NCBI GenBank assembly: GCA_963701075.1
Contig: OY969559.1
Span: 1,152,001 to 1,216,000 of the forward strand
From: an uncultured Nitrososphaerota archaeon
Lineage (GTDB): Archaea > Thermoproteota > Nitrososphaeria > Nitrososphaerales > Nitrosopumilaceae
DNA length: 64,000 nt
Direction: 5' to 3'
Part shown: positions 847-58,526 of the stretch, in pieces
Layout of the letters: every line of letters starts with the position of its first letter
How positions within the stretch are numbered: position 1 is the first letter of the stretch
Notes under the pieces: generated by a model
What the model saw: the letters and a program-made list of their open reading frames with translations, nothing else
What the model was told of the DNA's origin: nothing
Databases searched by the model: none
Translations under genes and position numbers: made by a program

Positions 847-1215
847 ATGAAAATACTGGAATTCTGTGATCTGGTACTTTCCGTGGATGGGAAAATTCGT
901 TACGTTGGAGTGTATCATAACGAGAATGTATATCATAAATTACAAAAAAACGTGAAAAGCTATTTCACGGATGAAGAAAACATGATATCGGTAAAGACAG
1001 AGGTTGTAAGAGCATCGATGCGTAGATACATGGTAGAAAAATTAGGCGAACCCATCTTTTCAATGACCAAATATCCAAAGGTTACCATGGTAACTTTTCA
1101 CTGTATGATGACAAATCTCGTACTGATAAGTATTGAACCAAATGCAGATCCTAATGATATCGTAAACAAAGTATTGGGCATGATACAAACACATGGCGAG
1201 TCATTAGAACCCTAG
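847..1215 (+). CDS. Thaumarchaeal hypothetical protein (roadblock/profilin-like family)
   Basis: 122-aa ORF; IRYVGV and LG...S...Y.KV pattern seen in expanded thaumarchaeal small proteins. Confidence 0.6.
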   Translation: MKILEFCDLVLSVDGKIRYVGVYHNENVYHKLQKNVKSYFTDEENMISVKTEVVRASMRRYMVEKLGEPIFSMTKYPKVTMVTFHCMMTNLVLISIEPNADPNDIVNKVLGMIQTHGESLEP

Positions 1216-1394
1216 TGCCTCATGTGGCACTCATTTGCAATTATGGAAAACACCGAGTGTTTCACAATGAACGAACGCAATCTTTTCAATAGGTGGTACG
1301 TAATAGTACTGTAAGTTGCAGATTCTTACCAAGGCGGTCTGTTCTTGGTGGAAGTCCTTCCAGAGCAGACCCCTTTGTTATTGTGATCTTTGCA

Positions 1395-1724
1395 TCAACT
1401 AAATTGCTCTTCAAGCAAGTCTACGCAAGAAAGCAAGAGGTCCCTGCTTTTTTTCACAAGCCATCCTGGGAACTCTTCTATTGTGAAAACTAGCTGCTGC
1501 TGGAAACTTGGGGGTATGCTTCCCCCTGATGTTACTACTTGTACAATTACATAGTCTTCAGTCAATGTGCAAACCGTTTCCTGATACGACTCTCCTTCCT
1601 CTTCCATGCTGTTTCTATACAGTATGATGGGCGTCTTTGTCCTTGCCACATGAGATGATCCTTTCTTTAACAATACTTGAAAGTGGGACAAAAGCCAACC
1701 ATCGAGAGTTATTTGCTTGGGCAT
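1395..1724 (-). CDS. Hypothetical protein
   Basis: 109-aa ATG ORF co-oriented downstream of ileS. Confidence 0.7.
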   Translation of the reverse strand: MPKQITLDGWLLSHFQVLLKKGSSHVARTKTPIILYRNSMEEEGESYQETVCTLTEDYVIVQVVTSGGSIPPSFQQQLVFTIEEFPGWLVKKSRDLLLSCVDLLEEQFS

Positions 1725-1768
1725 GAGAATTAATCTCTGTTTAATTATTTAATTGGCTAGATAAAACC

Positions 1769-4700
1769 TTACTCTATTGAGATTTGGATCTTTTGACCAT
1801 CAAGATCTTCGTCTTTGTAACTTTTGGCCTTGTCTGAAAATTCTACTCTTTTCACCCTTACAAGAAAGGCAAGTTCTGATTGTTTTTCGTTGACCATTGT
1901 AAGGGAATCATCATCAAGACCTAGTATGTATGCCGCATCGAGAACATCAGTTGGATTGTATCCGCGTTCCTTTCTGAGTACCTGTAATCGCCTTGCTATG
2001 TCTCGAACCAGACCACGTGCCATCATTTCGCGATTTCGTGATGTGCTGATAAACACTATGAGAGAATCTCGTCTTGCCATTGCATGGCCTTCTTGCTCTG
2101 TAAAATCTATAACAAAATCGTCTTTATCTAGCTCAATTTTGGTACTGCCAAGATCAAAGCTTAAACGTTCCATTTTTCAATAATCCTTCTACAATTACTT
2201 TGGGGTCAGTCTCTGAAAACTTTGCTACTAGATTTCCCATGTCTTGTTTTGCTTTTGGCCCTATCTTCTTTCGCTCAAGTTCAACTTTGGGGGTTATGGG
2301 CAGTCCTGTCTTCATTAGGTTTGATACAAGCTCGAGCCCTTCAGATTTTGGCAATTCAACTATTTTGTATTTTTCTACATTGAGTTGTGATAAAAGCAAC
2401 TCTGACAAAGATTCAAGTTTTTGTTTCTGTAATGGCTCAACGCAAATGATTGCTTCATTTAATGGCCATCTTCGTTTTAATTTCCCTTTCATTCTTGCAG
2501 CGGCTGAAACAGATACAGCTTCTTTCATCAAGTCAAATGATTCTTCAGTTTTTTCACTGATTAGAGACTGCTGAGGTGCAGGAAAGTCCTCCAAGAGTAT
2601 GCTCTTTTTTTCAGAAAACATTGTGGTGTGTAGATACTGTGTCGTAAATGGGCAAATTGGATGAATCAGAACATCGATTGTTCTTAAAATCTCATACAGC
2701 GTTGCATAGATTGCAAGTCTTCTTTCTCTTAATGACTCATCTTCTGTCCACAATTCCTCTCTAGTGATTGGAATGTAAACTTGGCTTACAGAATTTATGA
2801 TAAAATCGTCTATTGCTCTTGCTGATTCATGGAACCTGCATCTTTCTTGAGACTCTATTACTGATGAAATCAACTTTTGAAGCTTTGATAATATCCAAAT
2901 CTCTGGCTCTTTTAGGAGATTCTTGTCTTTTGCCCATTGTACTGTGAAAGTCTTGTCATACTTGTCATACTCGCTATTTTGTTTCAGGTAGATGTGTAAG
3001 TGGTACAGCGTGCTGAGAATCTGATAGGGTCTTGAAACAAGCTCGTCTGTGCTAAAGTTGAGAGGCTCGATTGGGCTTGATTTCCACATGAAATACAGCC
3101 GAATCAAATCTACCGAGTACTTGTTTAACAGCTCTATTGCGTCTAGTACATTGCCTTGGCTCTTGCTCATCTTGTTGCCGTTTTTGTCAAGCACGTGTCC
3201 TTGAAAGAGAAACGATTTGAATGGGGCAACCGGCGCATCATTGAATATTACATTTTCAATTAATAGGGTATATGCCCATCCTCTTGTCTGGTCTATGCCC
3301 TCGGTAAGAAATGCGGCAGGGATGTACTCTTGATAATCGCTGTTGGTAAGTGATGCATATGGCGCAGCTCCACTGTTGTGCCACGTATCCAAAACAAACT
3401 GCTCTCTTTCCATCTTTGAATTACACTTGTCACAGTTTATCACCACCTTGTCTATCCATGGCCTATGCATCTCAAAATTTGGCCCATCTGGAAGCTCTGA
3501 TGCAGCCTTTGTTATGTCCTCTCTTGAGAAGAACCATTTTTGGTTACCGCACTTTTTGCAGTTCCAAAGAGGTAATGGGCATCCCCAGATGCGTTCCCGT
3601 GAGATGCACCAAGGATGACGGTCCTTAATGATTTCAACAAATCTGTTTCTTGGCGGCTCGAAAAAGTATTCTACGCTTTCTGCTGCCTTTACTGCCTTGT
3701 CTCCAAGCCTGTCAAGAAAATAAAAGAACCCTCTTCTTGCAAGCCAGAGTAGTTTGTGCTGTGATCTCCAGCACAATGGATATTGATGCTTTATCTTTCC
3801 AATTCGTACAAGAGCGTTTTTTTCCTTGATTGCGCTAACTATCTTGTCGTCTGCGTCTCTTACAAAAAGGCCTGCAAAGACTCCGGCATCTTTTGTAAAT
3901 TTTGCCTCGTCATTTATTGGGTTAAAAATCGGTATTTTTCTTTTTGTTGCAATCTCAAAGTCTTCCTCACCGTTTGCAGGAGACAAGTGAACAAGACCAC
4001 TTCCTGTTTGTACATCTACAAAACCCTCTGATACTACAATGTGAAAATTGGGAAGAGCGGAGCGTTCTCTGAGTCCTGGAATCTCATCTAAAAGAGGATG
4101 AATGTACTTTTTTCCTTCAAGGGTTGAACCCTTTACCTCCTTGATGATTGTGTGCTCCTCAACTCGAGCTTCCTTCATGAATTCTTCTAGGCGGCTTTTG
4201 CCTACCAGCCATACCTCGTCTCCTACTTTGACATGTACATAGTCTTCATCTGGGTTTACTCCGACCATTGTATCAGTAACAAGTGTAAACGGCATTGTGG
4301 TCCAAACAATAAGATAAAGATCCTCGTCTTGCATCTTCACTTTGTAATAGAGAGACGGGTCCTGAACTGTATCGTATCCTTGGTTTACTTCGGCATGACT
4401 TAGCGATGTCTGACAGCTTGGGCAGTATGCCACTACCTTGTAGGCTTCAGAAAGAATTCCATTCTCATGAGCTTTCTTTAGATATTTCCATTCTCGTTCA
4501 ATGTATTCATCTTTGTATGTCCAGTATGCATTTTTTTGGTTAAATGACATTCCCAATAATTTATCAGACTCTACCCATTTCTCGTTGAATCTGTGTACGA
4601 TTTTTTTGCATTCTAAAACAATTTTTTCTATTCCGGCAGATTCTATTACTTGAGACTTGCTTCCTGAGATGCCAAGTTCTTTTTCTGCCTGCAGCTCAAC

Positions 4701-4967
4701 TGGGAGACCCTGTGTGTCCCAGCCCGCATTAAAAATAATCTTGTAGCCCCGCAGAGTAGTGTACCTATACCACAAATCCTTCATTACTCGACCACGAAGA
4801 TGTCCTGCATGGGGTGTTCCATTCATGGTGGGAGGGCCTTCTATGAAGACAGTCTTTTTTGTTTTATTTGAAGACTCGAAAATTAATTTCTCTAAATCGA
4901 TACCTGATAATTGTTGTTTTACTTCATCTTCTATCTTCTTTGGATTAAACTCACTTGAAATCTGCAT
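1769..4967 (-). CDS. ileS: Isoleucine--tRNA ligase (one +1 frameshift near 2160, probable sequencing error)
   Basis: HAGH (HIGH-type) and KMSKS motifs, GWDTQGLP, WTTMP, DQTRGW; the C-terminus continues in ORF 1769..2173. Confidence 0.96.
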
Positions 4968-5078
4968 GATAATGGCTATAATTTTACTGATTTTATAAAG
5001 GTACGATAGAACTTGCTTGAACTGTACCATTAAAAAAGTAAATGTTGCTAAAAGATGCTTTCATTGGCCAGTTGTGTG

Positions 5079-7686: not shown

Positions 7687-7763
7687 GGCAGAAATTATTT
7701 ATTTGTAAGGTAAGCTTAATCAGCTAAATTCATTGAACAAAGGCTAGAAAAAATACTAAGCTG

Positions 7764-8195
7764 GAACTGTTATCTTTAGATTACCAGCAAATTTTTTATT
7801 AAATAATAGGTTTTACCAAATACTCGATGATTGCATATACGTTACACCAAATCATGGTAATGATAACATAACCTGAGCCTTTTTTACTGTCATCTCATCT
7901 TTCAATTTAGAACTTGATCACCACAGAACAATACGGGAGTCAAATGAATGCAAACAAAATAAGCACCAGCAAGACCTGTCCGGTAGGCGGAGATAACTCT
8001 AAGGGGGCAGGCTATGACATCTATGAATCGTGGTGCAGTAAGCACGCCTTTTCGGCTGTGCGGTGTGGGCTAGGTTTACCCATACTGGAGGGCTTTCAGA
8101 GGAAGTGATGATAAGGAACATGGATAACATACAGCCACTAATCCTTGGAGTAGATGAAAGCAAGTTTACTTGTCAACCTACAAGTGGACAGAACC
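7764..8195 (+). mobile_element. Non-autonomous, internally deleted derivative (MITE-like) of the tnpB TIR element, retaining the putative omegaRNA segment
   Basis: Flanked by direct repeat CTAAGCTG (7756-7763, 8196-8203); right end GACAGAACC; 8088-8111 identical to 58379-58402; degenerate tnpB Zn-finger remnant (TSKTCPVGG..SWCS). Confidence 0.8.
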
Positions 8196-8279
8196 CTAAG
8201 CTGTATCTGAAGACTGTGTTACTGTGGTGACACAAGTTACCGTAACATGGGTTTGATATATCAAAACCCAATCTTGTAA

Positions 8280-9441: not shown

Positions 9442-10626
9442 ATGAGCCTAGCACCGCAAGAGTTAGAAAATAGCGCAAGTAGATTTGCTGCGGAAGCCAT
9501 AAAGTCTTGACTCACAAGGCGCACGTGGTATGGCAATCTCTAACTACCAGAGGGCAGTAGAATCGCTCACAAAGCTAATTCACCTATATCCTGAAAACAA
9601 ACTAAATAGAGTATACCAAGAACGTGTCGCTGCATATCAGAATCGTATCAAAGCATTACAATTGACTAATGTGGATATAGAGCCAGCTGTTGATCCAAAA
9701 GCAACCCCTGAAGAGCAGAAACAGTCCCTGACAAAAAATGAACTTGATTCATTGATAATGAAGGAAAAGCCAAACGTCAGCTGGGCAGAAGTAATTGGTC
9801 TTGATGATGCAAAAAACGCACTCCGAGAATCTATTGTTTATCCTGCTAAACGTCCTGACCTATTTCCACTTGGATGGCCAAGAGGAATACTGCTTTATGG
9901 TCCTCCTGGATGTGGCAAGACAGTACTTGCAGCAGCTACTGCAAGCGAGATTGATGGATATTTCATTAATGTAGATGCTGCCTCTATGATGAGCAAGTGG
10001 TTGGGTGAGGCAGAGAAGAATGTTTCAAAGCTATTCACCATGGCAAGAGGAATGGCTGAAAAAGAAGGGTTACCAGTAATATTGTTTATCGATGAAGTGG
10101 ACTCACTTCTTGGAAACCGCAATAGTGAGATAGGAGGAGAGATTAGAGTCAAAAATCAGTTTTTGACCGAGATGGACGGCATCAACGGAAAAGGAAAAGA
10201 TCTCAACTCTATGTCATAGGGGCTACAAACAAACCATGGAGCCTTGACTGGCCGTTTCTTAGGAGATTTACAAAAAGAGTCTATGTGTCGCTTCCAACGC
10301 TAGAAGCAAGAGTTAGTCTTTTTGAGCTTTATACCGCACCACTTCAAAAGGATGAAAAATCAAAACCGTCCGAGCTTGCAAAACTGGCAGACGGATACAG
10401 CGCAAGTGACATCAAAGACATTTGCCAGTCTGCACAGTTAATGGTTGTAAATGACTTGTTCCACTCGCCGGCATTCCAAGACCCTGTAGTGGGAGAAGCG
10501 CCACCGCAACCACGCCAGATCACCATGTCTGACTTTAAGGAAATAATCACAAGACGAAAGCCAAGTGTAAGCATGGAAATGATTCGCGCCTATTACAAGT
10601 GGAGCGATCAATTCAAGGCCCTGTAG
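9442..10626 (+). CDS. cdvC: CdvC/Vps4 AAA+ ATPase (two frameshifts, ~9505 and ~10206)
   Basis: MIT domain MSLAPQELENSASRFAAEAIK..., Walker A GPPGCGKT, Walker B FIDEVD, Vps4-like C-terminus. Confidence 0.92.
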
Positions 10627-11889: not shown

Positions 11890-14800
11890 GTCGCTAAAAA
11901 AAATATTGGTTCTTGGCAGTGGGGCAATTAAAATCGGAGAAGCAGGCGAAAGTCACAAAATGACCGCCAGTTCGACTACTCCGGTAGCCAATGTCTCAAG
12001 GCCATAAAGGAAGAAGGGATACAAAGCATTCTTGTAAATCCAAACATTGCAACAATTCAAACTGACACAAGGTTTGCAGACAAGGTGTATTCAATTCCGG
12101 TAAACCCCCAGTACGTAGAGTCCATCATAGAATCTGAAAGGCCAGACGGCCTGATGCTTGGATTCGGTGGACAGACTGCTCTGAACTGTGGAGTAAAACT
12201 CGAAGAGATGGGCGTGCTAAAAAAATATGGGGTGCGGGTGCTGGGTACACAGGTGGCAGGGATTCGGGCAACCGAAGACAGGCAACTCTTCAAGGATGCC
12301 ATGATAGAGTGCGGCGTTCCAGTACTGAAAAGTAAGACAGTTTACAACTTTGAGCAGGCAAAAGAGATTGCAAATGAGCTTGGCTATCCTGTAATCATAC
12401 GTGTTGCATACACATTGGGCGGAAAGGGTGGAGGAGTGGCACACAATGAAATCGAGTGACACGAAATAGTGACAAGGGGCCTTAACGCAAGTCTTGTGGG
12501 GCAGGTACTAATTGAGGAGTATGTGGGGCACTGGAAGCAGATAGAGTATGAGGTCATGGCAGACTATGATGGTAACAATGTAATAATTTGTAACATGGAA
12601 AATGTTCTTTCAATGAGGGTGCATACTGGTGACAATATAGTTGTGGCACCATCGCAGACACTTGATAATTTAGAGTACCAGATGTTAAGGTCTGCAGCAC
12701 TAAAGGCAGCACGTCATGTTGGTATAGTTGGTGAGTGCAACATACAGTTTGCACTAGATGCAGATTCTGACAAGTATGTTGCAATAGAGATGAATCCAAG
12801 ACTCTCGCGCTCGTCTGCACTTGCAAGCAAGGCCACTGGATACCCAATAGCATACATGGCAGCAAAGATTGGGATGGGTCACACACTTCCTGAGCTTGTA
12901 AATCGTATAACAAAAACCACCACTGCGTGCTTTGAGCCCTCACTTGACTATATCGTATGCAAGCATCCGCGATGGGACTTTGGCAAGTTTGAGCTTGCAA
13001 ACCGCAGCCTTGGACCTACAATGAAATCAGTAGGCGAGGTAATGGCAGTGGGAACATGTTTTGAAGAATCATTTCAAAAAGCAATTAGGATGCTTGAGAT
13101 TGGAAACGACGGACTTGTTGCAAACCGAACCCCTGACAAGATTTACGATGTCGAGGATCTGGAAGACAAGCTGCAAAAGCCAGATGACCATATACTATAC
13201 CACGTAGCAGCAGCACTGCGGCAGGGAATCTCAGTTGAGAGAATCTACAAGCTTTCTGCAATAGACCCGTGGTTTGTAGAAAAAATTAAAAACATTGTAG
13301 AGACTGAGAAAAATCTCAAGGAATCAAATCTTGATAAAAATACATTGAGTGCTGCAAAAAAACTTGGATTCTCAGACAAGCAGATTGGAAGGCTGACAGG
13401 AAAAGACGACATGGAAGTTCGAAAGATGAGAAAAGAGTCTGGAATTGTACCTGTAGTAAAACGAATAGACACCCTTGCAGCAGAGTGGCCTGCCCAGACA
13501 AACTATCTATACCTTACATATGGTGGAAAAACAAATGACTTTGAGGTAAACTCTGATAATGAAAAGATAGCGGTGCTAGGCGCAGGGCCATACCGCATTG
13601 GGAGCAGCGTAGAGTTTGACTGGGGAACAGTAAACATGGTTTGGGGGCTCAAGGAAAATGGCGTAAAGGAGGTCTCTGTGATAAACTGCAACCCCGAAAC
13701 CGTATCGACTGACTATGATATCTGTGACAGGTTGTACTTTGAAGAGTTGACACTTGAAAGGGTTCTTGATATTGCAGAATTTGAAAAGTTGACAGGAATT
13801 GTGACTGCAGTAGGGGGCCAGACTGCAAACAACTTGACACCGAAACTTGCAAAACATGGAATTAAGATAATTGGAACGTCATACGAGGATATCGACAGGG
13901 CAGAAAACAGGTCTCACTTTAGCAAGGTGCTTGATAATCTTCACATAAGGCAGCCCCCATGGCAGGCGTTCTCAAGTTTGTCTGATGCTAAAAAGTTTGC
14001 ACTAAAGGTGGGCTATCCGGTTCTTGTAAGGCCATCTTATGTGCTAAGCGGCGCTGCAATGAAAGTTGTCTGGTCAGAAGAACAACTCAAAAAATATCTG
14101 GACGAAGCAGCCAATGTCTCGCCAGACTATCCTGTCGTTATTACAAAGTTCATGCTAAACTCACTTGAGGCCGAAGTGGATGGAGTCTCAGATGGAAAAA
14201 ATGTTGTAATCGGTGCAGTAATAGAACACATTGAAGGGGCAGGTGTGCATTCTGGAGATTCCATGATGTGCATCCCTCCATGGAGCCTTTCCAACAAGGT
14301 CATTGAGACAATACTTGATTATACGAAAAAAATTGCAAGTGCGTTTACAATAAAGGGTCCGTTTAATCTGCAATTTCTTATCAACTCTGATCAGGTCTTT
14401 GTAATTGAGCTTAACATCAGGGCATCGCGCTCCATGCCGTTTGTGTCAAAATTTGTCAGGATGAATCTTATCAGTCTTGCAGCACGGGCAGTACTTGGAA
14501 AACCTCTTCCGGCAATTCCACATGACAGGTGGCGCAAGATACACAACTATGGAATCAAGGTACCGCAGTTTTCATTTATGCAACTTGAAGGTGCTGATGT
14601 GATACTTGGAGTGGAGATGCAGTCAACAGGGGAAGCTGCATGCTTTGGCGAAAGCTTCTATGATGCACTAGCAAAGGGGTTAATCTCTGTAGGGTACTCT
14701 TTGCCAAAGGAAGGATCAGTATTGATAACAGCGGGAGGCTCTGAGAACAAGGAGAAACTCTTGCAGACTGCACTCTTGCTCAAAAGTCTTGGCTACAAGA

Positions 14801-15138
14801 TTTTAGCAACAGAGCACACTGCAGAATTTTTGTCAGACAAGAGGATAGGGGATGTGCAAATTGTATACAAGATTAGCGAGCCCCAGCGCAAGCCCAACAT
14901 TGCAGACATGCTGTACCAGCACAAGATTGATTTTATCATAAACGTGCCAAGCACATCGACACTTGAAAAATATGTCGGCATGTTGTACGACGAGTACCAG
15001 ATAAGAAGAAAGGCAGTAGAGCTTGGCATACCTGTGCTGATAACAACGGAACTGGCAGACTCTTTTGCAAAGACACTAGAGTGGTTGAGGCACAACGAGA
15101 CCACCAAAAAGCCACTAGAGCCGTACGAGACAATTTGA
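11876..15138 (+). CDS. carB: Carbamoyl-phosphate synthase large subunit: exon 1 11876-11950, putative intron 11951-11970, exon 2 11971-15138 (in-frame TGA at 12457-12459 is a likely read error)
   Basis: ILVLGSGAIKIGEAGE|FDYSGSQ, EMNPRLSRSSALASKATG, second ATP-grasp, MGS-like domain. Confidence 0.95.
11951..11970 (+). other. Putative 20-nt bulge-helix-bulge (BHB/BHL) mRNA intron in carB
   Basis: GGCG-AA^A-GTCA-CAAAA-TGAC-CGCC-AG^T; removal gives GGC GAA TTC GAC (GEFD) in frame. Confidence 0.82.
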
Positions 15139-50109: not shown

Positions 50110-51698
50110 CTATGTTGCGGAAAACTTTCGCAGTGTCCTGTTGTACGCAACACCAAATCTGTGTGCCTCATCTCTTGCATATTGGAGAACCTTTAGCGCA
50201 GAATTATTTTTTGGCAAGACAATCGGGCTTTTTAGGTTTGGATGGTAGATCTCTTCGTTCTCTTTCAGCTAGAGATACAACCGGTATGCTAACTCCGGCA
50301 GTTTTTAGCGCCCCAAGTGCGGCATTTCAGCTGACCCCTTCCTCCGTCTATGAGTATCAAGTCAGGCATCTTCGAGTCTTCCTGCCGCAATCTCAGGTAT
50401 CTCCTTTTTACCACCTCATTTATCATTGCAAAATCATCTCTTCCATGCACTGTCTTGATTCTAAATTTTCTATACTCTGACTTTGCTGGCTTGCCGTCTA
50501 CAAGGCACGACATTGAACCCACTGCATAGTCTGCTCCATGATTTGAAATGTCAAAGCATTCTATGGTTCTTGGGATGTGCTCTAGTTTTAATTTCTCTTG
50601 AAGCTCAACCACGGCAGGGTCTGCGCCCTTTGACAGCAAGAGATCAATATTTTTCATTACTAGTCTTATCATCTCTTTTCGTTTTCCGGCGGCTGGTACC
50701 ATTATATTGACCTTGAACCCTGCAGCGCGAGAAAATATCTCTTCGAGAATATCTTTTTCAGCTGGCATCTGGCTTGTCACTATGAACTTTGGAACAGGAT
50801 TTGAAGAATAGTATTGTGATAGAAAACTTGAAAATGAATTGTCCCCTACCAAGTCAAATGAAAACGTGTTTCTGTCTTTTATCACGCCGCGAGTCTGCCT
50901 AAAACTCATGACATGTGCAGTCTGGTCCCTTGTCTTGATGCCAAAATATTCCTCGTCTGAGCCATGCACTGACTCCATCTTTTGCTTGGTTTGAAGATTC
51001 TGAAGCCTCTGAAGTGTTTCGCGAATCTCCTTTGCTCGCTCATACTGTAAACTGGATGAGGCCTCCCTCATCTCTTCTTCAAGTTTTGCAACAAAATCCT
51101 CAAGCTTTCGCTTTCCTTTGAGAATGGATTCAAGCTCCAAGATATGTTCTGGGTATTGCTTTTGTGCGTCCTTGAACTGGCATGGTGCCTCGCAGTTGCC
51201 TAGGTGATACTCTAGGCACGCCTCTTTTGGAAGCCTTTTGCATATCCTAATCTTGAATGTCTTTCTCAAAAGTCCGATTGAGAGCATCTTTGAGCTTCCA
51301 TGGGTAAATGGTCCGTATACGCGTCCTCCTCCAAGAAACTCTCCAGTCCTTGTCCTTCTTGCCACCATTAGGCGCGGAAACGCTTCGTTTGTAATCCTGA
51401 GATATGTGTACCGCTGCTGGTCTTTTAGCTCTATGTTGTAGGGAGGTCTGTAGCGCTTGATCATGTTGGATTCAAGCAAGAACGCCTCTTCTTCATTGTC
51501 GGTCAGCACAAATTCGATATCTCTTATTTTTTCAACAAGTTTCTGGGTCTTGTAGTTCTGGTTCTTGACAAAATAAGACCTGACGCGGTTCTTCAAGTTC
51601 TTTGCCTTTCCTATATACAGAATGTTGCCCTTGCCATCTTTCATGATATAGATGCCATAGTGAGACGGAATGTTCAGCGATGAAATATCAAGAGCCAT
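50110..51698 (-). CDS. uvrC: Excinuclease ABC subunit C (two frameshifts, ~50266 and ~50327)
   Basis: GIY-YIG (YGIY...[12 protein letters not shown]), FDISN, LIDGG.GQL, RDEAHRF. Confidence 0.95.
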
Positions 51699-54509
51699 TT
51701 TTCAAGATTCGCTTTAGGTACTGACCTGTGTAGCTTCTTGGGTTTTGAGAAACCTGCTCAGGTGTTCCAGTTGCAACAATTGTCCCGCCGCCGTCTCCTC
51801 CTTCTGGGCCCAAGTCAATTATCCAGTCTGAATTTTTGATAACATCCATGTTGTGCTCAATGATTATTATGGTATTTCCAAGCTTTACCAAACGGTTCAA
51901 GACTTCAAGTAATCTTTGAACATCTGCAAAATGCAGTCCAGTTGTTGGCTCGTCTAGTATGTAGACCGTTCTTCCCGTATCGCGCTTTGACAGCTCTGAC
52001 GCAAGTTTGACACGCTGAGCCTCCCCGCCAGACAATGTAGTAGCCGCCTGGCCTAGCTTGATGTATCCAAGACCCACGTCAAAAACTGTCTGAAGCTTTC
52101 TCTGGATCGAAGGAATGTTTTTGAAAAATTCTAATGCCTCTTCTACTGTCATTGATAACACATCTGAAATGTTCTTGTCCTTGTAGTGCACTGCTAGTGT
52201 CTCAGAGTTGTATCTTTTCCCCTTGCATTCATCGCATACCACGTAAACGTCTGATAGAAACTGCATCTCTATTTTTTTGACCCCGTCTCCTTCACATGCA
52301 AAACATCTGCCGTCTGCCACATTAAATGAAAACTGTCCAGGGGCATATCCTCGCTCTTTTGATAATTCCGTCTCAGAGTACAGTTCCCTGATTGGTGTGA
52401 ATGCGCCGATATACGTGGCAGGATTTGAGCGTGGGGTGCGCCCTATTGGGGACTGGTCTATTCCTATCACTTTGTCAATCTCGTCCAATCCTGATATTGC
52501 CTTGTGCCTTCCTGGCCTGTCGATGGAACCATAGATATCTTTGGCAAGTGCCTTGTAGAGAATATCGTTTACAAGAGTAGATTTTCCCGAGCCTGACACG
52601 CCTGTCACTGTAATCATCATCCCTAGGGGAAACGAGACATCGATACTTTTGAGATTGTTCTCTGCTGCGCCTTTTACTATCATCTCTCCTTTTTTTGCAT
52701 ATGTTCTTTTTTCAAATTTTATTGCATCGTGATTTTTAAGATACTGTCCGGTTACAGACTCGACACTTTTTAAAATGTCATGTATTGTTCCTTCAAAGAC
52801 TACGTTTCCACCATGTACTCCCGCGCCAGGTCCCAAGTCGATAATCCAGTCAGAACTTCGCATCACCTCCTCGTCATGCTCTACGACAAGTATTGTGTTT
52901 CCAAGGTCTCGAAGCTTTGTAAGCGTCTTGATCAATTTTGCATTATCTCTTTGGTGTAGCCCAATTGTTGGCTCATCGAGCACATAGAGTACTCCTGTAA
53001 GGTTGGAGCCGATCTGAGTTGCAAGCCTGATTCTTTGCGCTTCTCCGCCAGACAGGGTTGAGCTAACCCTATTTAGCGTAAGATAGTTCAGGCCTACGTT
53101 TCTTAGAAACTCAAGCCTGGAAAGAATTTCTTTTAGGATTGACTTTGCAATGTATCTTTCAGTCTCGCTTAGCTGGAGATTTTTGAAAAACTCGTAACAT
53201 GAATCAATTGATAAATCACAGACATCCATTATAGACAATGAACTAATCTCAACTGCAAGTGATTCATCCTTTAGCCTTCTTCCCTTGCATGTGTTGCACG
53301 GAGTCTCTCGCATGAACTTGCTTAGCTCCTCTCTTTTTGACTCTGAATCGGTCTCTGCGAAATTTTTCTGCAAGACTTGGTATTACGCCATGAAAAGTGT
53401 TGGTATACTCCCATCTTGAATCAGTTGATTGCGATTCATATGAAAACTTGACAGCTTCACGGCTCCCATACAGGATAACCTCGAGTTGCTTTTGTGTCAT
53501 CTTGTTAATTGGAGTCATTAGATCAAAGCCATATTTTTTTCCGACATCTCGAAGTGTCTGTCTCCTAAATGACGAAAATCTTCCTGACCATGGAATTATG
53601 GCCCCGTCTAGGATGGATTTTGTCTTGTCAGGAATTAGCAGATCAGGCTCAAACTCCATCTTGACGCCTAGCCCGTGGCATGTCTTGCATGCCCCAAATG
53701 GCGAGTTGAAAGAAAACCCTCTTGGTTCAAGCTCGCCTATTGATATTCCGCAAAATGGACATGCATTGTTCTGAGAATAGACCTTTTCTTCAGTATCTGC
53801 AACCATGACATCGCCTTTTCCTGCCTTGAGCGCAGTCTGGATGGATTCATAGAGCCTGCTTTTTTCTTCCCAGGCTGCCTTGAGTCTGTCAACGACGATT
53901 TCTATATTGTGCCACTTTTGCTTGTCAAGTGTTGGAAACTCGCCTGTAATTTCTATTATTTCTCCGTCTACTCGAATTCTGGAATATCCCTGCTTTTTTA
54001 CCTCTTCGAATATTTTTTCATATGTTCCCTTCTTTCTTCTAACAAGTGGTGCAAGTATCAGTATTTTTTTTCCTTCTGATTCTTTGAGAATTGATTCACA
54101 GATTGATTCTATTGACTGGTTTGATATCTTGCGCGCACATCTTGGACAGTGCGGCGTTCCAATTCTTGCATATAGTAGTCTGAGATAATCGTAAATCTCT
54201 GTTATTGTTCCAACAGTTGACCGCGGGTTTTTGCTTGTAGTTTTTTGCTGAATCGATATTGCAGGAGATAACCCTTCAATTGAGTCAACATCTGGCTTAT
54301 TCATCATCTCAAGGAACTGTCTTGCGTAAGCTGATAATGACTCGACATATCTTCTCTGCCCTTCTGCATAAATTGTATCAAATGCAAGTGTTGATTTTCC
54401 AGAGCCTGAAAGTCCCGTAATTACTACAAGTTTATTTTTTGGAATATCAACATTAATGTTTTTTAAATTGTGCTCTCTTGCACCACGGATGATTCAGCTT
54501 GTCATTCAT
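51688..54509 (-). CDS. uvrA: Excinuclease ABC subunit A (frameshifts ~53372 and ~54495)
   Basis: [19 protein letters not shown], two LSGGEAQR signatures, Zn fingers. Confidence 0.96.
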
Positions 54510-56443
54510 TTCTTAACTGTCTCTGTATTTTGGTTAATTTATCGCGGTATTCAATTGCATTCTCAAAGTCCAGATCTTCTGCATAACGCTTCATGGTGGC
54601 CTCTATTTCAATTGCAAGGGTTTGCAAGTCATGTCTTGACATGTGCTTTGTCTCTTCTAGCACTATGGTTTGAGCAGGTATTGCCTTTACAATAGTAGCA
54701 GGCGTGATTCCCATCTTTTTGTTGTATTCTATTTGCCTATTTCTTCTTCTTTCTGTCTCTGTCATGGCAAGCTTCATTGACTGGGTAACCTTGTTGGCAT
54801 ACATTATCACAGAGCCGTCTACATTTCTTGCTGCTCTTCCAAATGTCTGAATCAGACTGGTGATGTTTCTCAAAAAGCCTTCCTTGTCTGCATCAAGTAT
54901 GGCAACAAGGGATACTTCGGGGATGTCAAGGCCTTCTCGCAGTAGATTTATGCCTACTAAAACGTCAAACTCTCCCAGTCTTCAGCTGTCTTATTATTTC
55001 TGTTCTCTGAAGGTTTTCAATCTCTGAATGAAGATATCGCACTTTGACCTTGTTTTTTGATAGGTATTCTGCCAAGTCTTCTGCCATTCGTTTTGTTAAT
55101 GTAGTGACAAGTACACGTTGATTTTTATCAACACGTTTTTTTATTTCTAAAATCAAGTCGTCCATCTGACCTTCAGTCTTTCGTATCTCCACTGTTGGGT
55201 CTACCAAGCCTGTCGGTCTGACTAGCTGCTCTACTATGCGGAAACTTTTCTTGCGTTCATAATCTCCTGGAGTTGCAGAGACAAAGACAGTGTTTTTTAC
55301 ATATTTTTCAAATTCCTCAAACTTTAGAGGTCTGTTGTCAAAAGCGCTGACAAGCCTGAACCCGTAATCTATGAGTGATTTTTTACGCGTATGGTCGCCG
55401 TTGTACATTCCGTGCAATTGCGGCAGCGTTACATGCGATTCATCAACTACAAGTAAAAAATCATCGCCAAAAAAGTCAAGCAGGCAAAACGGAGGTTCCC
55501 CTTCCAGTCTACCATCAAAATGTCTTGAATAATTCTCGATTCCAGAGCAATAACCAAGCTCCTCTATCATTTCTAAATCATATTTTGTTCTCATCTCAAG
55601 TCGCTGCCTTTCAAGCTCGTGCAGCTGTGGCAGCCTCTCTTTTAGTTCATTTCTTATTGACTCGACTGCTTTTTTTCTGACATCTGACGCAACAAGGTAG
55701 TGTTTTGCCGGATAAATCTTGATTTGTGATACCTGTTTCTTCTCTTTGAGTGATATAGGGTCACAAATTGATATTTTTTCAACATCGTCTCCAAACATGG
55801 AAATTCTTACAACTGAATCAGAATATGCCGGAATGATGTCAACTGTATCACCCTTTATTCTAAATCTGCCTGGCAACAACTCTGTATCATTTCTGTCATA
55901 TCTTGCATTGACAAGTTTCTTGATCAAAGATCTTCGCCCAATCTCTGCCCCTTTTTCTATCGTGATTGACATGAGCTCCCACTCGCGAGGCGAGCCAAGA
56001 GAGTATATGCATGAGACAGTCGCAACCACTATGGTTGGCTCCCCTGAAAGCAGCATGGCTGTTGCCTCTAGTCTCATTTTTTCGATTTTTTCGTTTATTT
56101 GCGTGTCTTTTTCTATGTACGTGTCAGTCTGAGGTATGTAGCTTTCCGGCTGGTAGTAATCATAATAGCTGACAAAATATCCGACATTGTTTTTTGGAAA
56201 AAATTGCTTTAGTTCAGAATAAAGCTGAGCCGCAAGCGTCTTGTTGTGTGATATCACAAGTGTGTTTTTTCCAGTCCTTTGAATGGCATTGGCAACAGTA
56301 AACGTCTTGCCGCTTCCTGTCACTCCAAGCAGCGTCTGGATCTTTTTTCCCCTGATTCCTTCTACTAGCGCTTCTATGGCCTGGGGCTGGTCTCCTGTGG
56401 GCACAAAGTCTGATACTATCTCAAAGGTAGGATTTTCAAGCAA
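54502..56443 (-). CDS. uvrB: Excinuclease ABC subunit B (frameshift ~54982)
   Basis: [33 protein letters not shown]. Confidence 0.96.
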
Positions 56444-57172: not shown

Positions 57173-57215
57173 AGATCAGTGATTCCACCTTTTGATATTT
57201 TTGCGTATGCTTTAA

Positions 57216-58506
57216 GATTTTGTTAACTCTTCGGTTGTTTACATAACCTAGATTATAACAATATAACCAAGTCTTTTTCTTGTAGACAAATCCTCATCTG
57301 ATAATTGTACGCCATAAAATCCATAAAACAGACTTATTCAAATGCTGAACTTGGCACCATGATGGATACATTCAAGGAGATGGTAAACCATTGTATCAGG
57401 ATTGGGCTTGAGAACAATGTTTCCACGCTGAAGAAATTCTCGTCAATGTTTTATCATGAGCTTCAAAGCTACCAAATCCAGTCAAAATACAAACTTACTG
57501 CAATGTCACAGGCCTGCGGAAGGCTCTCACAGATGAAGCAAGAGATCAGGAAGGGGAGGAGCGCAAAGTCTCCTTATGTAAGAAGACCATACTTGGTGTC
57601 ATGTTATGGATTCAAGGTTAACGGAATGTTGTTGTCAATTCCAACAGGAAACAGAAACTACATCAATGTTATACTAAATGAGCATACCATGAAAAAGCTC
57701 GCAGAGGAGGGTGTCAGGCCAAGGTGTTTACAATCACCCCAAACTCATTATCCATTTCAGTGAGAAAAGAAGTAGAGGAGATTAGATGCAATAACGTAAT
57801 CGGAATAGACAGAAATTTAAGAAATGTCACCATCTCTACACAGTCAGGACCGGTCATGTACAAGACCGGAAAGTTACTGTCAATAAAGGAAAATTCCCAG
57901 TTTGTAAGAGCGTCATTTAGAAGACACGACGTGAGAGTCAAAAACAAGTTCTTTGCACCGAGAAGGAACAGGCAGTCAAGACGGATACAACAGTATCTGC
58001 ATAAAATATCGAGGGATATTGTGAGTAGAGCAAAAGAGTCAAAGGCAATCATTGCCTTTGAGGATCTAAAAGGAATTCGCAAGTTGTATCAAAAGGGGAA
58101 CGGCCAAGGAAAGAAATTCAGACGAAGATTAAACTCCTGGTCATTTTACGAGTTGCAGAGACAGATTGTATACAAGGCATCATGGGAGGGAATTCCAGTC
58201 AGATTCGTAGATCCAAAACGCACCAGCCAACTCTGTCCAATATGCGGAGATAGAATCCAAGAGGACAAGTTTCACAGACGAAAATCATGGTGCAGTAATT
58301 GTAGGAAATCAATTGACCGCGATGTTGTCGCGGCACTGAACATATCTTACAAGGGGTGGAGTAGGTTTTGCCATCCTAGAGGGCTTTCAGAGGAAGTGAT
58401 GAGGGGGAATGTGGAAAACTTTCAGCCACTAATCCTCAGAGTAGATGGAAGCAAGTTGATCTCGGTATGAATGTTTTATGCAAACAACCGAAGAATTAAC
58501 AGAACC
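57216..58506 (+). mobile_element. tnpB-only transposon with IS6-like 31-bp TIRs and an 8-bp TSD
   Basis: TIRs 57216-57246 and 58476-58506 (27/31 match); direct repeat TGCTTTAA at 57208-57215 and 58507-58514; no transposase gene inside. Confidence 0.88.
57305..58470 (+). CDS. tnpB: RNA-guided nuclease TnpB (frameshift ~57722)
   Basis: RuvC-I GIDRN, RuvC-II FEDL, WSFYELQRQIVYKA, TSQLCPICG/CSNC Zn finger, RuvC-III DRDVVAALNI. Confidence 0.93.
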
Positions 58507-58526
58507 TGCTTTAATAGTTAAATTGG
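58355..58526 (+). ncRNA. Putative TnpB omegaRNA (scaffold overlapping the tnpB 3' end, plus flank-derived guide); boundaries approximate
   Basis: Position typical of omegaRNA; nucleotide conservation with 8065-8195 peaks here; hairpin GCTTTC-AGA-GGAAGT. Confidence 0.55.

Follow-up and report, generated by a model that had tools for sequence, protein, structure and literature searches.

We identified a family of small archaeal elements in which a gene for the RNA-guided nuclease TnpB lies within inverted repeats of the IS6 type. Sequence comparison makes it probable that these elements are non-autonomous and are mobilised in trans by an IS6 transposase, that copies beside a TAM are kept by selection, and that the copy in the window (the 64,000-nucleotide stretch of DNA analysed here) is a dead member of the family.

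The host genome is one contig of 1.92 Mb (95% complete), and the window stretch was found in soil metagenome runs. The nearest named records with the window TnpB carry the labels Nitrosotalea, Ca. Nitrosotenuis and Nitrososphaera, which are ammonia-oxidising archaea. As the initial annotation had proposed, the element of the window (57216-58506, 1,291 bp) has tnpB as its sole gene, its left end matches the reverse complement of its right end at 27 of 31 positions, and the octamer TGCTTTAA stands on either side of it (Table 1); the chance of a given octamer of this composition is about 3e-5. The right end, GGTTCTGTT, shows the short TIR, GG tip and cTGTt motif of IS6 elements, and the duplication has the 8-bp length of that family. 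The IS6 DDE transposase that marks an autonomous IS6 element is missing from between the TIRs. The left tip is altered, as had been noticed, and reads GATTTTGT where its right counterpart is GGTTCTGT; however, the GG has been changed to other bases and not lost. The tip of the right TIR lies 36 bp past the tnpB stop codon, with no second end in between. The element is placed between divergent host genes, one pyridoxamine-oxidase-like and the other encoding 136 amino acids without a Pfam match. Window positions 57208-57225 and the empty sites of relatives locate the insertion in an AT-rich stretch that is kept across the genus between the two divergent genes and is probably their promoter region.

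The second copy to which the initial annotation pointed, near 7.8 kb of the window, is real and is preceded by ..AATA, but what is left of it (7764-8195, flanked by CTAAGCTG) has an internal deletion and is not a full element. It retains the whole scaffold and the right end, and RNA-only remnants of this kind could guide intact TnpB made elsewhere.

Table 1. Features of the tnpB element and of a deleted family member, in window coordinates.
Feature	Position	Strand	Basis or remark
Predicted TAM, TA (family motif TR, often TTR)	57206-57207	+	host DNA directly 5' of left duplication; putative function
Left target-site duplication, TGCTTTAA	57208-57215	+	single copy at orthologous empty sites
Left TIR, IS6-type, decayed tip GATTTTGT	57216-57246	+	repeat comparison
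tnpB 5' part, first frame	57305-57763	+	one base missing after 57725
tnpB 3' part: RuvC D 57808, E 58060, D 58321 and C4 zinc finger	57724-58470	+	
Predicted omegaRNA scaffold	58353-58506	+	covariation
Scaffold stem 1	58353-58377		loop GGTTT 58364-58368
Scaffold stem 2	58383-58389 / 58446-58452		
Scaffold stem 3	58455-58460 / 58495-58500		
Scaffold pseudoknot	58364-58368 with 58502-58506		
Right TIR (GGTTCTGT... read inward), also scaffold 3' end	58476-58506	-	
Right target-site duplication, predicted guide seed (first 8 nt)	58507-58514	+	pseudoknot ending at tip; motif beside left copy
Host flank, predicted remainder of guide	58515-58522	+	by analogy with known TnpB systems
Deleted family member, CTAAGCTG duplications 7756-7763 and 8196-8203	7756-8203	+	left end decayed, tnpB mostly lost

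The window tnpB matches PF07282 (E 5e-21) and the NCBIfam profile guided_TnpB (133.6 bits, cut-off 100). Frameshifted as it is, this copy has the TnpB fold with the RuvC D-E-D triad and a C4 zinc finger; the three catalytic codons are intact, as had been claimed. Foldseek matches the TnpB fold 8h1j (E 1e-14) and Cas12f 8dzj (E 7e-17). The gene is split into two frames, a point that the initial annotation had touched on only among its proposed tests, and with the ortholog of a close relative (G006) as reference, which lies in an element at the same site and is free of the frameshift, the window copy is one base short. An assembly error was suspected from split housekeeping genes in the window: genes that we take to be uvrA, uvrB, carB, ileS and an AAA ATPase fall into consecutive ORFs (50289-56443, 12085-15138, 1769-5030, 9530-10626), probably through assembly indels. 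This explanation is excluded for tnpB by short-read contigs from runs X1, X2 and X4 (X1 and X2 possibly being source samples), which span the split site without gaps and agree with the window, so the frameshift is real in this population. The window copy is a pseudogene and, because of its frameshift and decayed left tip, probably immobile. Its intact scaffold might serve an intact TnpB from another copy.

The host genome contains eleven tnpB genes above the Pfam cut-off, nine of them with an IS6-type right end. Six of these nine are flanked by a duplication, namely the window copy and those near 1,777 kb, 244 kb, 171 kb (7/8), 298 kb and 68 kb; two more have both ends but no duplication, and one has a right end only. 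The tnpB genes at 103 kb and 304 kb are without IS6-type ends and are distant in the tree. For ten host elements no second site in the genome matched the predicted guide at more than 13 of 16 bases. A 56-bp remnant elsewhere in the genome (G000:C1:113330-113385, L116) consists of two facing repeats, and at the same site G006 carries a complete tnpB element that follows the residual end of an earlier one; the two together indicate that elements insert into, and collapse at, old copies.

A search of the genome for an IS6 transposase with the same ends, which the initial annotation had called for, found one. It encodes 385 amino acids (G000:C1:1818014-1819168), scores 130 bits against the NCBIfam IS6 model (NF033587, cut-off 125), and has a DDE domain together with weak Pfam hits to SWIM and zinc-ribbon domains. 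Its element, 2,278 bp with GGCTCTGT ends, has a perfect 8-bp duplication of its own. The presence of this cognate transposase agrees with the window copy being a non-autonomous IS6 derivative, and the annotated IS6-type ends, 8-bp duplication and non-autonomous state have all held up. The host genome has no match to a Y1 transposase (PF01797) or to a serine recombinase or resolvase (PF00239). Thus, the window element, with its TIRs and duplication, is neither of the IS200/IS605 type (Y1 TnpA, hairpin ends, no duplication) nor of the IS607 type (serine recombinase TnpA, no TIR, no duplication). Counting fragments, the transposase is present in 60 of the 63 genomes of the genus, where several IS6 subfamilies occur. 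An autonomous element with both genes was considered and not seen: tnpB and the transposase occur together in none of 35 tnpB elements and in none of the loci L001-L433, most of which are only 2-7 kb long.

The transposase elements have features of their own. In L001 (690-956, minus strand, and 895-2052, plus strand) the transposase combines a SWIM-like finger at its N-terminus with an IS1-like zinc ribbon (both weak Pfam hits) and is accompanied by a small divergent ribbon-helix-helix gene that may regulate it; N-terminal zinc fingers are described for long IS6 members (Varani et al. 2021, PMC7986276). Further along the same locus (2839-3024, minus strand, and 2993 onward) the fragment of an IS6 transposase C-terminus abuts a repeat that is identical to the left ends of one tnpB clade, the TGY clade, at 22 of 24 positions. 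Other IS6-type transposase elements, 2.3-7.7 kb in length, carry passenger genes (L183, L184, L185, L186, L421 and G000:C1:1816906-1820140) and stack in tandem in the order right end, same 8 bp, left end. An array site with the flank TAATAAAGATAT is common to several genomes and looks like a cassette-like hot spot, at which new elements reuse the existing duplication.

The window TnpB was matched in 35 of the 63 genus genomes. For the wider family we collected 388 tnpB hits in 413 loci, dropped those below 120 bits or without both ends in the locus, and merged sites with similar right flanks into 227 sites. To score candidate ends we used a matrix trained on 27 transposase-locus ends, with a threshold at approximately the 95th percentile of random windows. 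A metagenome scan with one loose pattern yielded mostly distant TnpBs, which were used as a negative control and outgroup. An IS6-type right end is present at 136 of the 171 near-clade sites versus 1 of the 56 sites of distant TnpBs. Both ends could be placed in 91 elements, and a duplication of 7-9 bp flanks 57 of them (8 bp in 49, 7 bp in five and 9 bp in three), compared with a mean of 0.48 and a maximum of 4 in 2,000 shuffled pairings. The other 34 of the 91 lack an in-register duplication, which counts against our main explanation. The duplication-bearing elements measure 1,222-1,451 bp across many independent sites. In one genome (G014) three copies with 95-100% protein identity occupy three sites, and a separate duplication flanks each of them, which shows that the entire unit moves together. 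The catalytic triad is intact in 124 of 129 long ORFs, and the GG of the left tip in 26 of 39 family members.

Repeats and duplications are also found in other families of the phylum (L484, L501, L514, L517). Four pairs of loci (L004/L174, L005/L061, L136/L137 and L128/L152) represent the same site in different species, with diverged tnpB genes and decayed left ends, which suggests long retention after mobility was lost. Two further genomes (G161 and G160) gave 150 and 176 first-look TnpB-profile candidates, of which six each were scored; they hint at large expansions.

Empty sites were found in relatives, as the initial annotation had suggested they might be. In G064, G046, G053, G019 and G070 the same two genes flank the site, and the matches to the left and right flanks overlap by 8 bp, so these sites hold one octamer and not both. 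GCGTA followed by TGCTTTAA is exactly preserved in 2 of 10 empty sites, the remainder having drifted, and the TA upstream of the octamer is kept. The exact empty-site joint was not seen in the contigs of four runs; as these are contigs, this is not evidence. None of the three observations that had been named as fatal to the annotation was made: we found neither a general lack of TIRs and duplications in other copies (57 of the 91 two-ended elements carry the duplication), nor empty sites with two octamers, nor an IS605 element nested in a MITE.

The 3' part of the element folds into a likely guide-RNA scaffold. From the 136 right ends we picked 54 for diversity within the main clade and aligned their final 175 bases. 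The alignment supports three stems, with compensatory changes at 16 of 20 pairs, and a pseudoknot in which the stem 1 loop (GGUUY) pairs with the terminal five bases of the element (GAACC); this pseudoknot is 98.1% paired, and U-A is replaced in it by C-G on both sides in 6 of 54 sequences. Over the whole structure 93.7% of cells are paired, as against 30-48% in slid controls, and none of 500 shuffles reached this value; since the sequences are related and the region is protein-coding, the covariation counts overstate independence. The structure is thus that of a predicted omegaRNA, a structured scaffold that ends at the right end of the element. The inner repeat supplies the 3' strand of stem 3 and covaries with the opposite strand, and on this comparative evidence the right inverted repeat is part of the predicted scaffold. 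Folded alone, the window scaffold is modestly stable (z -2.0), its support coming from covariation, and an Rfam search returned two chance-level hits and no matching model. Among 39 elements defined symmetrically, the left tip is worse than the right in 24 and the right worse than the left in one (p 1.5e-6), a difference that a second function of the right tip would explain.

In ISDra2 the guide begins directly after the pseudoknot. The scaffold of IS200/605 elements ends at the element boundary (PMC10711439). Because the repeat supplies the last stem and the pseudoknot, the guide is predicted to start at the first base of the right duplication.

Of 57 elements, 43 have a two-letter motif, TR, picked after inspecting the data, immediately 5' of the left duplication, and 9 have it at the corresponding place on the right, the flank background being 0.15. 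In the main clade the counts are 40 of 44 on the left and 7 of 44 on the right. The second clade has TR in only 3 of 12; two of its subclades have the motifs TGY (4/4) and ATAT (3/3), and one element, L027, is in neither clade. These represent separate insertions, since the flank differs at each site. In the main clade TR persists across many types of inner repeat, and the TGY clade shares an inner-repeat type with a TA element of the main clade. TR is missing from four elements of the main clade and also from a closely related sister copy in G006, which has TC there and whose left tip is intact (left end only). A TATA-box bias is an unlikely source of the motif, as TG accounts for 14 of 44 and the clades do not share one motif. 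Because it is left-sided and changes with the TnpB clade, TR is probably the TAM and the duplication probably the guide seed. The idea that the guide starts at the duplication, with the TAM to its left, had been put forward for the window copy; the TR counts and the scaffold pseudoknot give it strong comparative support.

As a small control we examined 17 IS6-ended elements without tnpB, 16 of which have a transposase and several of which lie at shared array sites. TR occurs at 6 of their 34 sides, or 6 of the 19 that do not abut another repeat (Fisher p 4e-6), and their own flanks are biased toward AT near -4/-3, resembling the motifs of the smaller tnpB clades. Duplications that begin with a pyrimidine and end with a purine are common to tnpB elements (39/49 and 32/49 at the two positions) and elements without tnpB (15/17 and 15/17). 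We read this symmetric bias as the transposase's mark; the one-sided TR is specific to tnpB elements. Another repeat abuts across the octamer at 15 of 34 sides of transposase elements versus 0 of 114 sides of tnpB elements, as would follow if the TAM is lost on tandem insertion or if such insertion leads to self-targeting. A left tandem neighbour would swap the TAM for CC, and a right one would lengthen the guide match in the left junction.

We propose the following course of events. An IS6 DDE transposase encoded elsewhere would insert the element and duplicate 8 bp, a step for which the comparative support is strong. A transcript across the 3' end of tnpB and the right repeat would then fold into the predicted omegaRNA, as covariation indicates. 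TnpB would cut the empty allele, which consists of the TAM (TR), the octamer and the flank; the occupied allele would be safe, its left junction having the TAM but only eight matching bases and its right junction a full match but CC. In the last and least certain step, the transposase would be blind to the TAM, insertions 3' of a TAM would convert or remove empty alleles and reach fixation, and other insertions would mostly be lost. We favour such selection after insertion over choice at insertion, because assembled genomes show fixed alleles and because TnpB-driven fixation of new insertions has been reported for plasmids (10.1101/2025.02.20.638934). It speaks against movement in trans that the IS26 transposase was apparently cis-only in one assay, although the IS6 family includes two MITEs (PMC7986276).

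Choice at insertion could lie with the transposase itself, which would prefer one-sided targets of TR plus 8 bp, the TAM of TnpB having evolved to match as in IS200/IS605. We consider this unlikely, yet near-perfect repeat pairs, which look young, already have TR in 16 of 18 cases (older pairs in 24 of 26); no stage of random insertion is therefore visible, and choice at insertion fits these counts equally well. Also in its favour, several IS6 subfamilies coexist in the genus, and the AT often seen at -4/-3 in the flanks of elements without tnpB is like the ATGY and ATAT motifs of two tnpB clades. Nevertheless, TR is confined to the left although the shared Y...R bias is symmetric, transposase elements have no fixed orientation to their flank motif, and TR spans inner-repeat types and shifts with the TnpB clade under a single type (few cases).

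Alternatively, TnpB might bind the TAM and open the next bases, where the IS6 transposase would insert, so that each insertion makes a working guide. The motif does lie next to the duplication, keeps a set orientation relative to tnpB, varies with the TnpB clade and is already almost complete in young-looking copies, and tnpB elements avoid the array sites of transposase elements. However, no locus has a transposase gene near tnpB, an empty site has no cognate guide before insertion, and post-insertion selection gives the same counts with known biology; such steering by TnpB is in our view distinctly unlikely. A prediction of a TnpB-transposase complex scored 0.02 against a mark of 0.32, which is not evidence either way. 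If true, steering by TnpB would amount to guide-independent, TAM-directed transposition, in which the 8-bp staggered cut turns into the seed of a new guide, and would be a possible halfway step to CRISPR-associated transposons.

The mover could also be another DDE enzyme with similar ends, since its pairing with the SWIM/zinc-ribbon IS6 transposase rests on end similarity and the inner repeat bases vary widely. This is very improbable, as the first eight bases, the duplication length and the duplication bias are the same, and the end of one transposase element (L092) matches the first 17 bases of TGY-clade tnpB ends. Finally, a classical IS605 or IS607 element nested in an unrelated IS6 MITE, a reading to which we give almost no credence and which may be considered largely refuted, would be in keeping with the IS607-type affinity of the nearest non-TIR TnpBs, an IS607-like end remnant inside the repeats of L027 and nested repeats in G006:C61, but not with a scaffold that pairs and covaries with the repeat itself, the tight size range or the close spacing of stop codon and tip.

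In a TnpB phylogeny of the kind the initial annotation had asked for, the nearest relatives without TIRs are IS607 elements, which have a serine recombinase upstream (NCBIfam IS607, 219.6 bits). TIR-bearing and archaeal IS607-type TnpBs form one group of 84 of 94 rows (SH-aLRT 100) in a quick IQ-TREE tree of a subsample with a long branch to the outgroup; this tree has three unresolved groups and places the TIR-bearing member L491 as sister to the IS607-type clade. FastTree unites the TIR-bearing TnpBs in one clade of 128 (0.92) with L027 outside. The archaeal IS607 elements have 3' ends with comparable loop-to-tip complementarity, and their right ends are often ...CAGAACG/C, close to the IS6 tip ACAGAACC; in contrast to the family described here, they have a serine recombinase and neither TIR nor duplication. 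With tips so alike, an exchange of ends that left the pseudoknot intact may have been easier. In L027 a stretch inside the IS6-type repeats and upstream of tnpB matches the 3' end of IS607-type elements, and is possibly the trace of a capture event.

One correction to the initial annotation is that TnpB branches in TIR-bounded DDE elements, DDE-1 to DDE-6, have already been published (Altae-Tran et al. 2023, PMC10691335). As in our family, TnpB lies there within inverted terminal repeats, its gene ends within 250 bp of the element end, and solo copies with the same ends are thought to move in trans (PMC10691335). The partners given in the available text are IS630 (PMC10691335) and, in a 2026 review, ISL2, IS630 and IS1031 (PMC13565253), with IS6 not named, and the DDE call required a transposase within 1,000 bp (PMC10691335), which is never the case in the IS6-ended family. 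The GG tip, the cTGTt and caaa motifs and the 8-bp duplication are those of the IS6/IS26 family and its MITEs (PMC7986276). Unlike these, the tnpB family has no transposase inside, its passenger is an RNA-guided nuclease, and its predicted scaffold uses the repeat. The accessible part of that IS6 review (PMC7986276) contains no mention of TnpB and lists one member with a passenger gene, and a survey of thaumarchaeal mobile elements (PMC6563490) counts IS families by type, in the part available, without a tnpB-IS6 pairing. No report of IS6-ended tnpB elements was found in the full-text literature, figures, subscription papers, ISfinder and the Zenodo files of PMC10691335 being outside reach.

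Fanzor1 and Fanzor2* in TIR transposons have a repeat that contributes to the RNA scaffold, as predicted for the family (Yoon et al. 2023, PMC10711439), but the Fanzor scaffold also incorporates the duplication, whose 5' copy serves in the TAM (PMC10711439). In our family the duplicated octamer is free to vary, the pseudoknot reaches exactly to the tip, and the motif is outside the octamer, from which we predict that the duplication serves as the seed. IS200/IS605 elements of the ISDra2 type and solo IS1341-type elements share the TnpB fold and a scaffold overlapping the gene end, and they have a TAM at the left boundary and a guide from the right flank, as predicted here. They differ in that our elements lack Y1, have inverted and not hairpin ends, and have 8 bp between the TAM and the element. 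What may be new is the IS6 partner, a family in which no linked transposase was found, and a variable duplication that would serve as seed, unlike in Fanzors.

The family would add a third arrangement for combining an RNA-guided nuclease with a transposon, with a variable 8-bp duplication as the apparent seed and the TAM outside; in the other two, IS605 inserts at the TAM and Fanzors fold the duplication into the scaffold. What benefit TnpB brings to a DDE element of low specificity, for which clean excision is unreported, is raised as an open question in section 6.2 of PMC13565253, and the IS6-ended tnpB family makes this question testable. As transposase and nuclease are unlinked, target choice and later selection can be separated by experiment. 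The family also offers more than 100 natural TnpBs of approximately 390 amino acids, whose hosts are mesophilic archaea and for which scaffolds and very short TAMs are predicted. In these soil archaea, it consists of small elements that carry only TnpB and are nearly always found beside a two-letter TAM-like motif.
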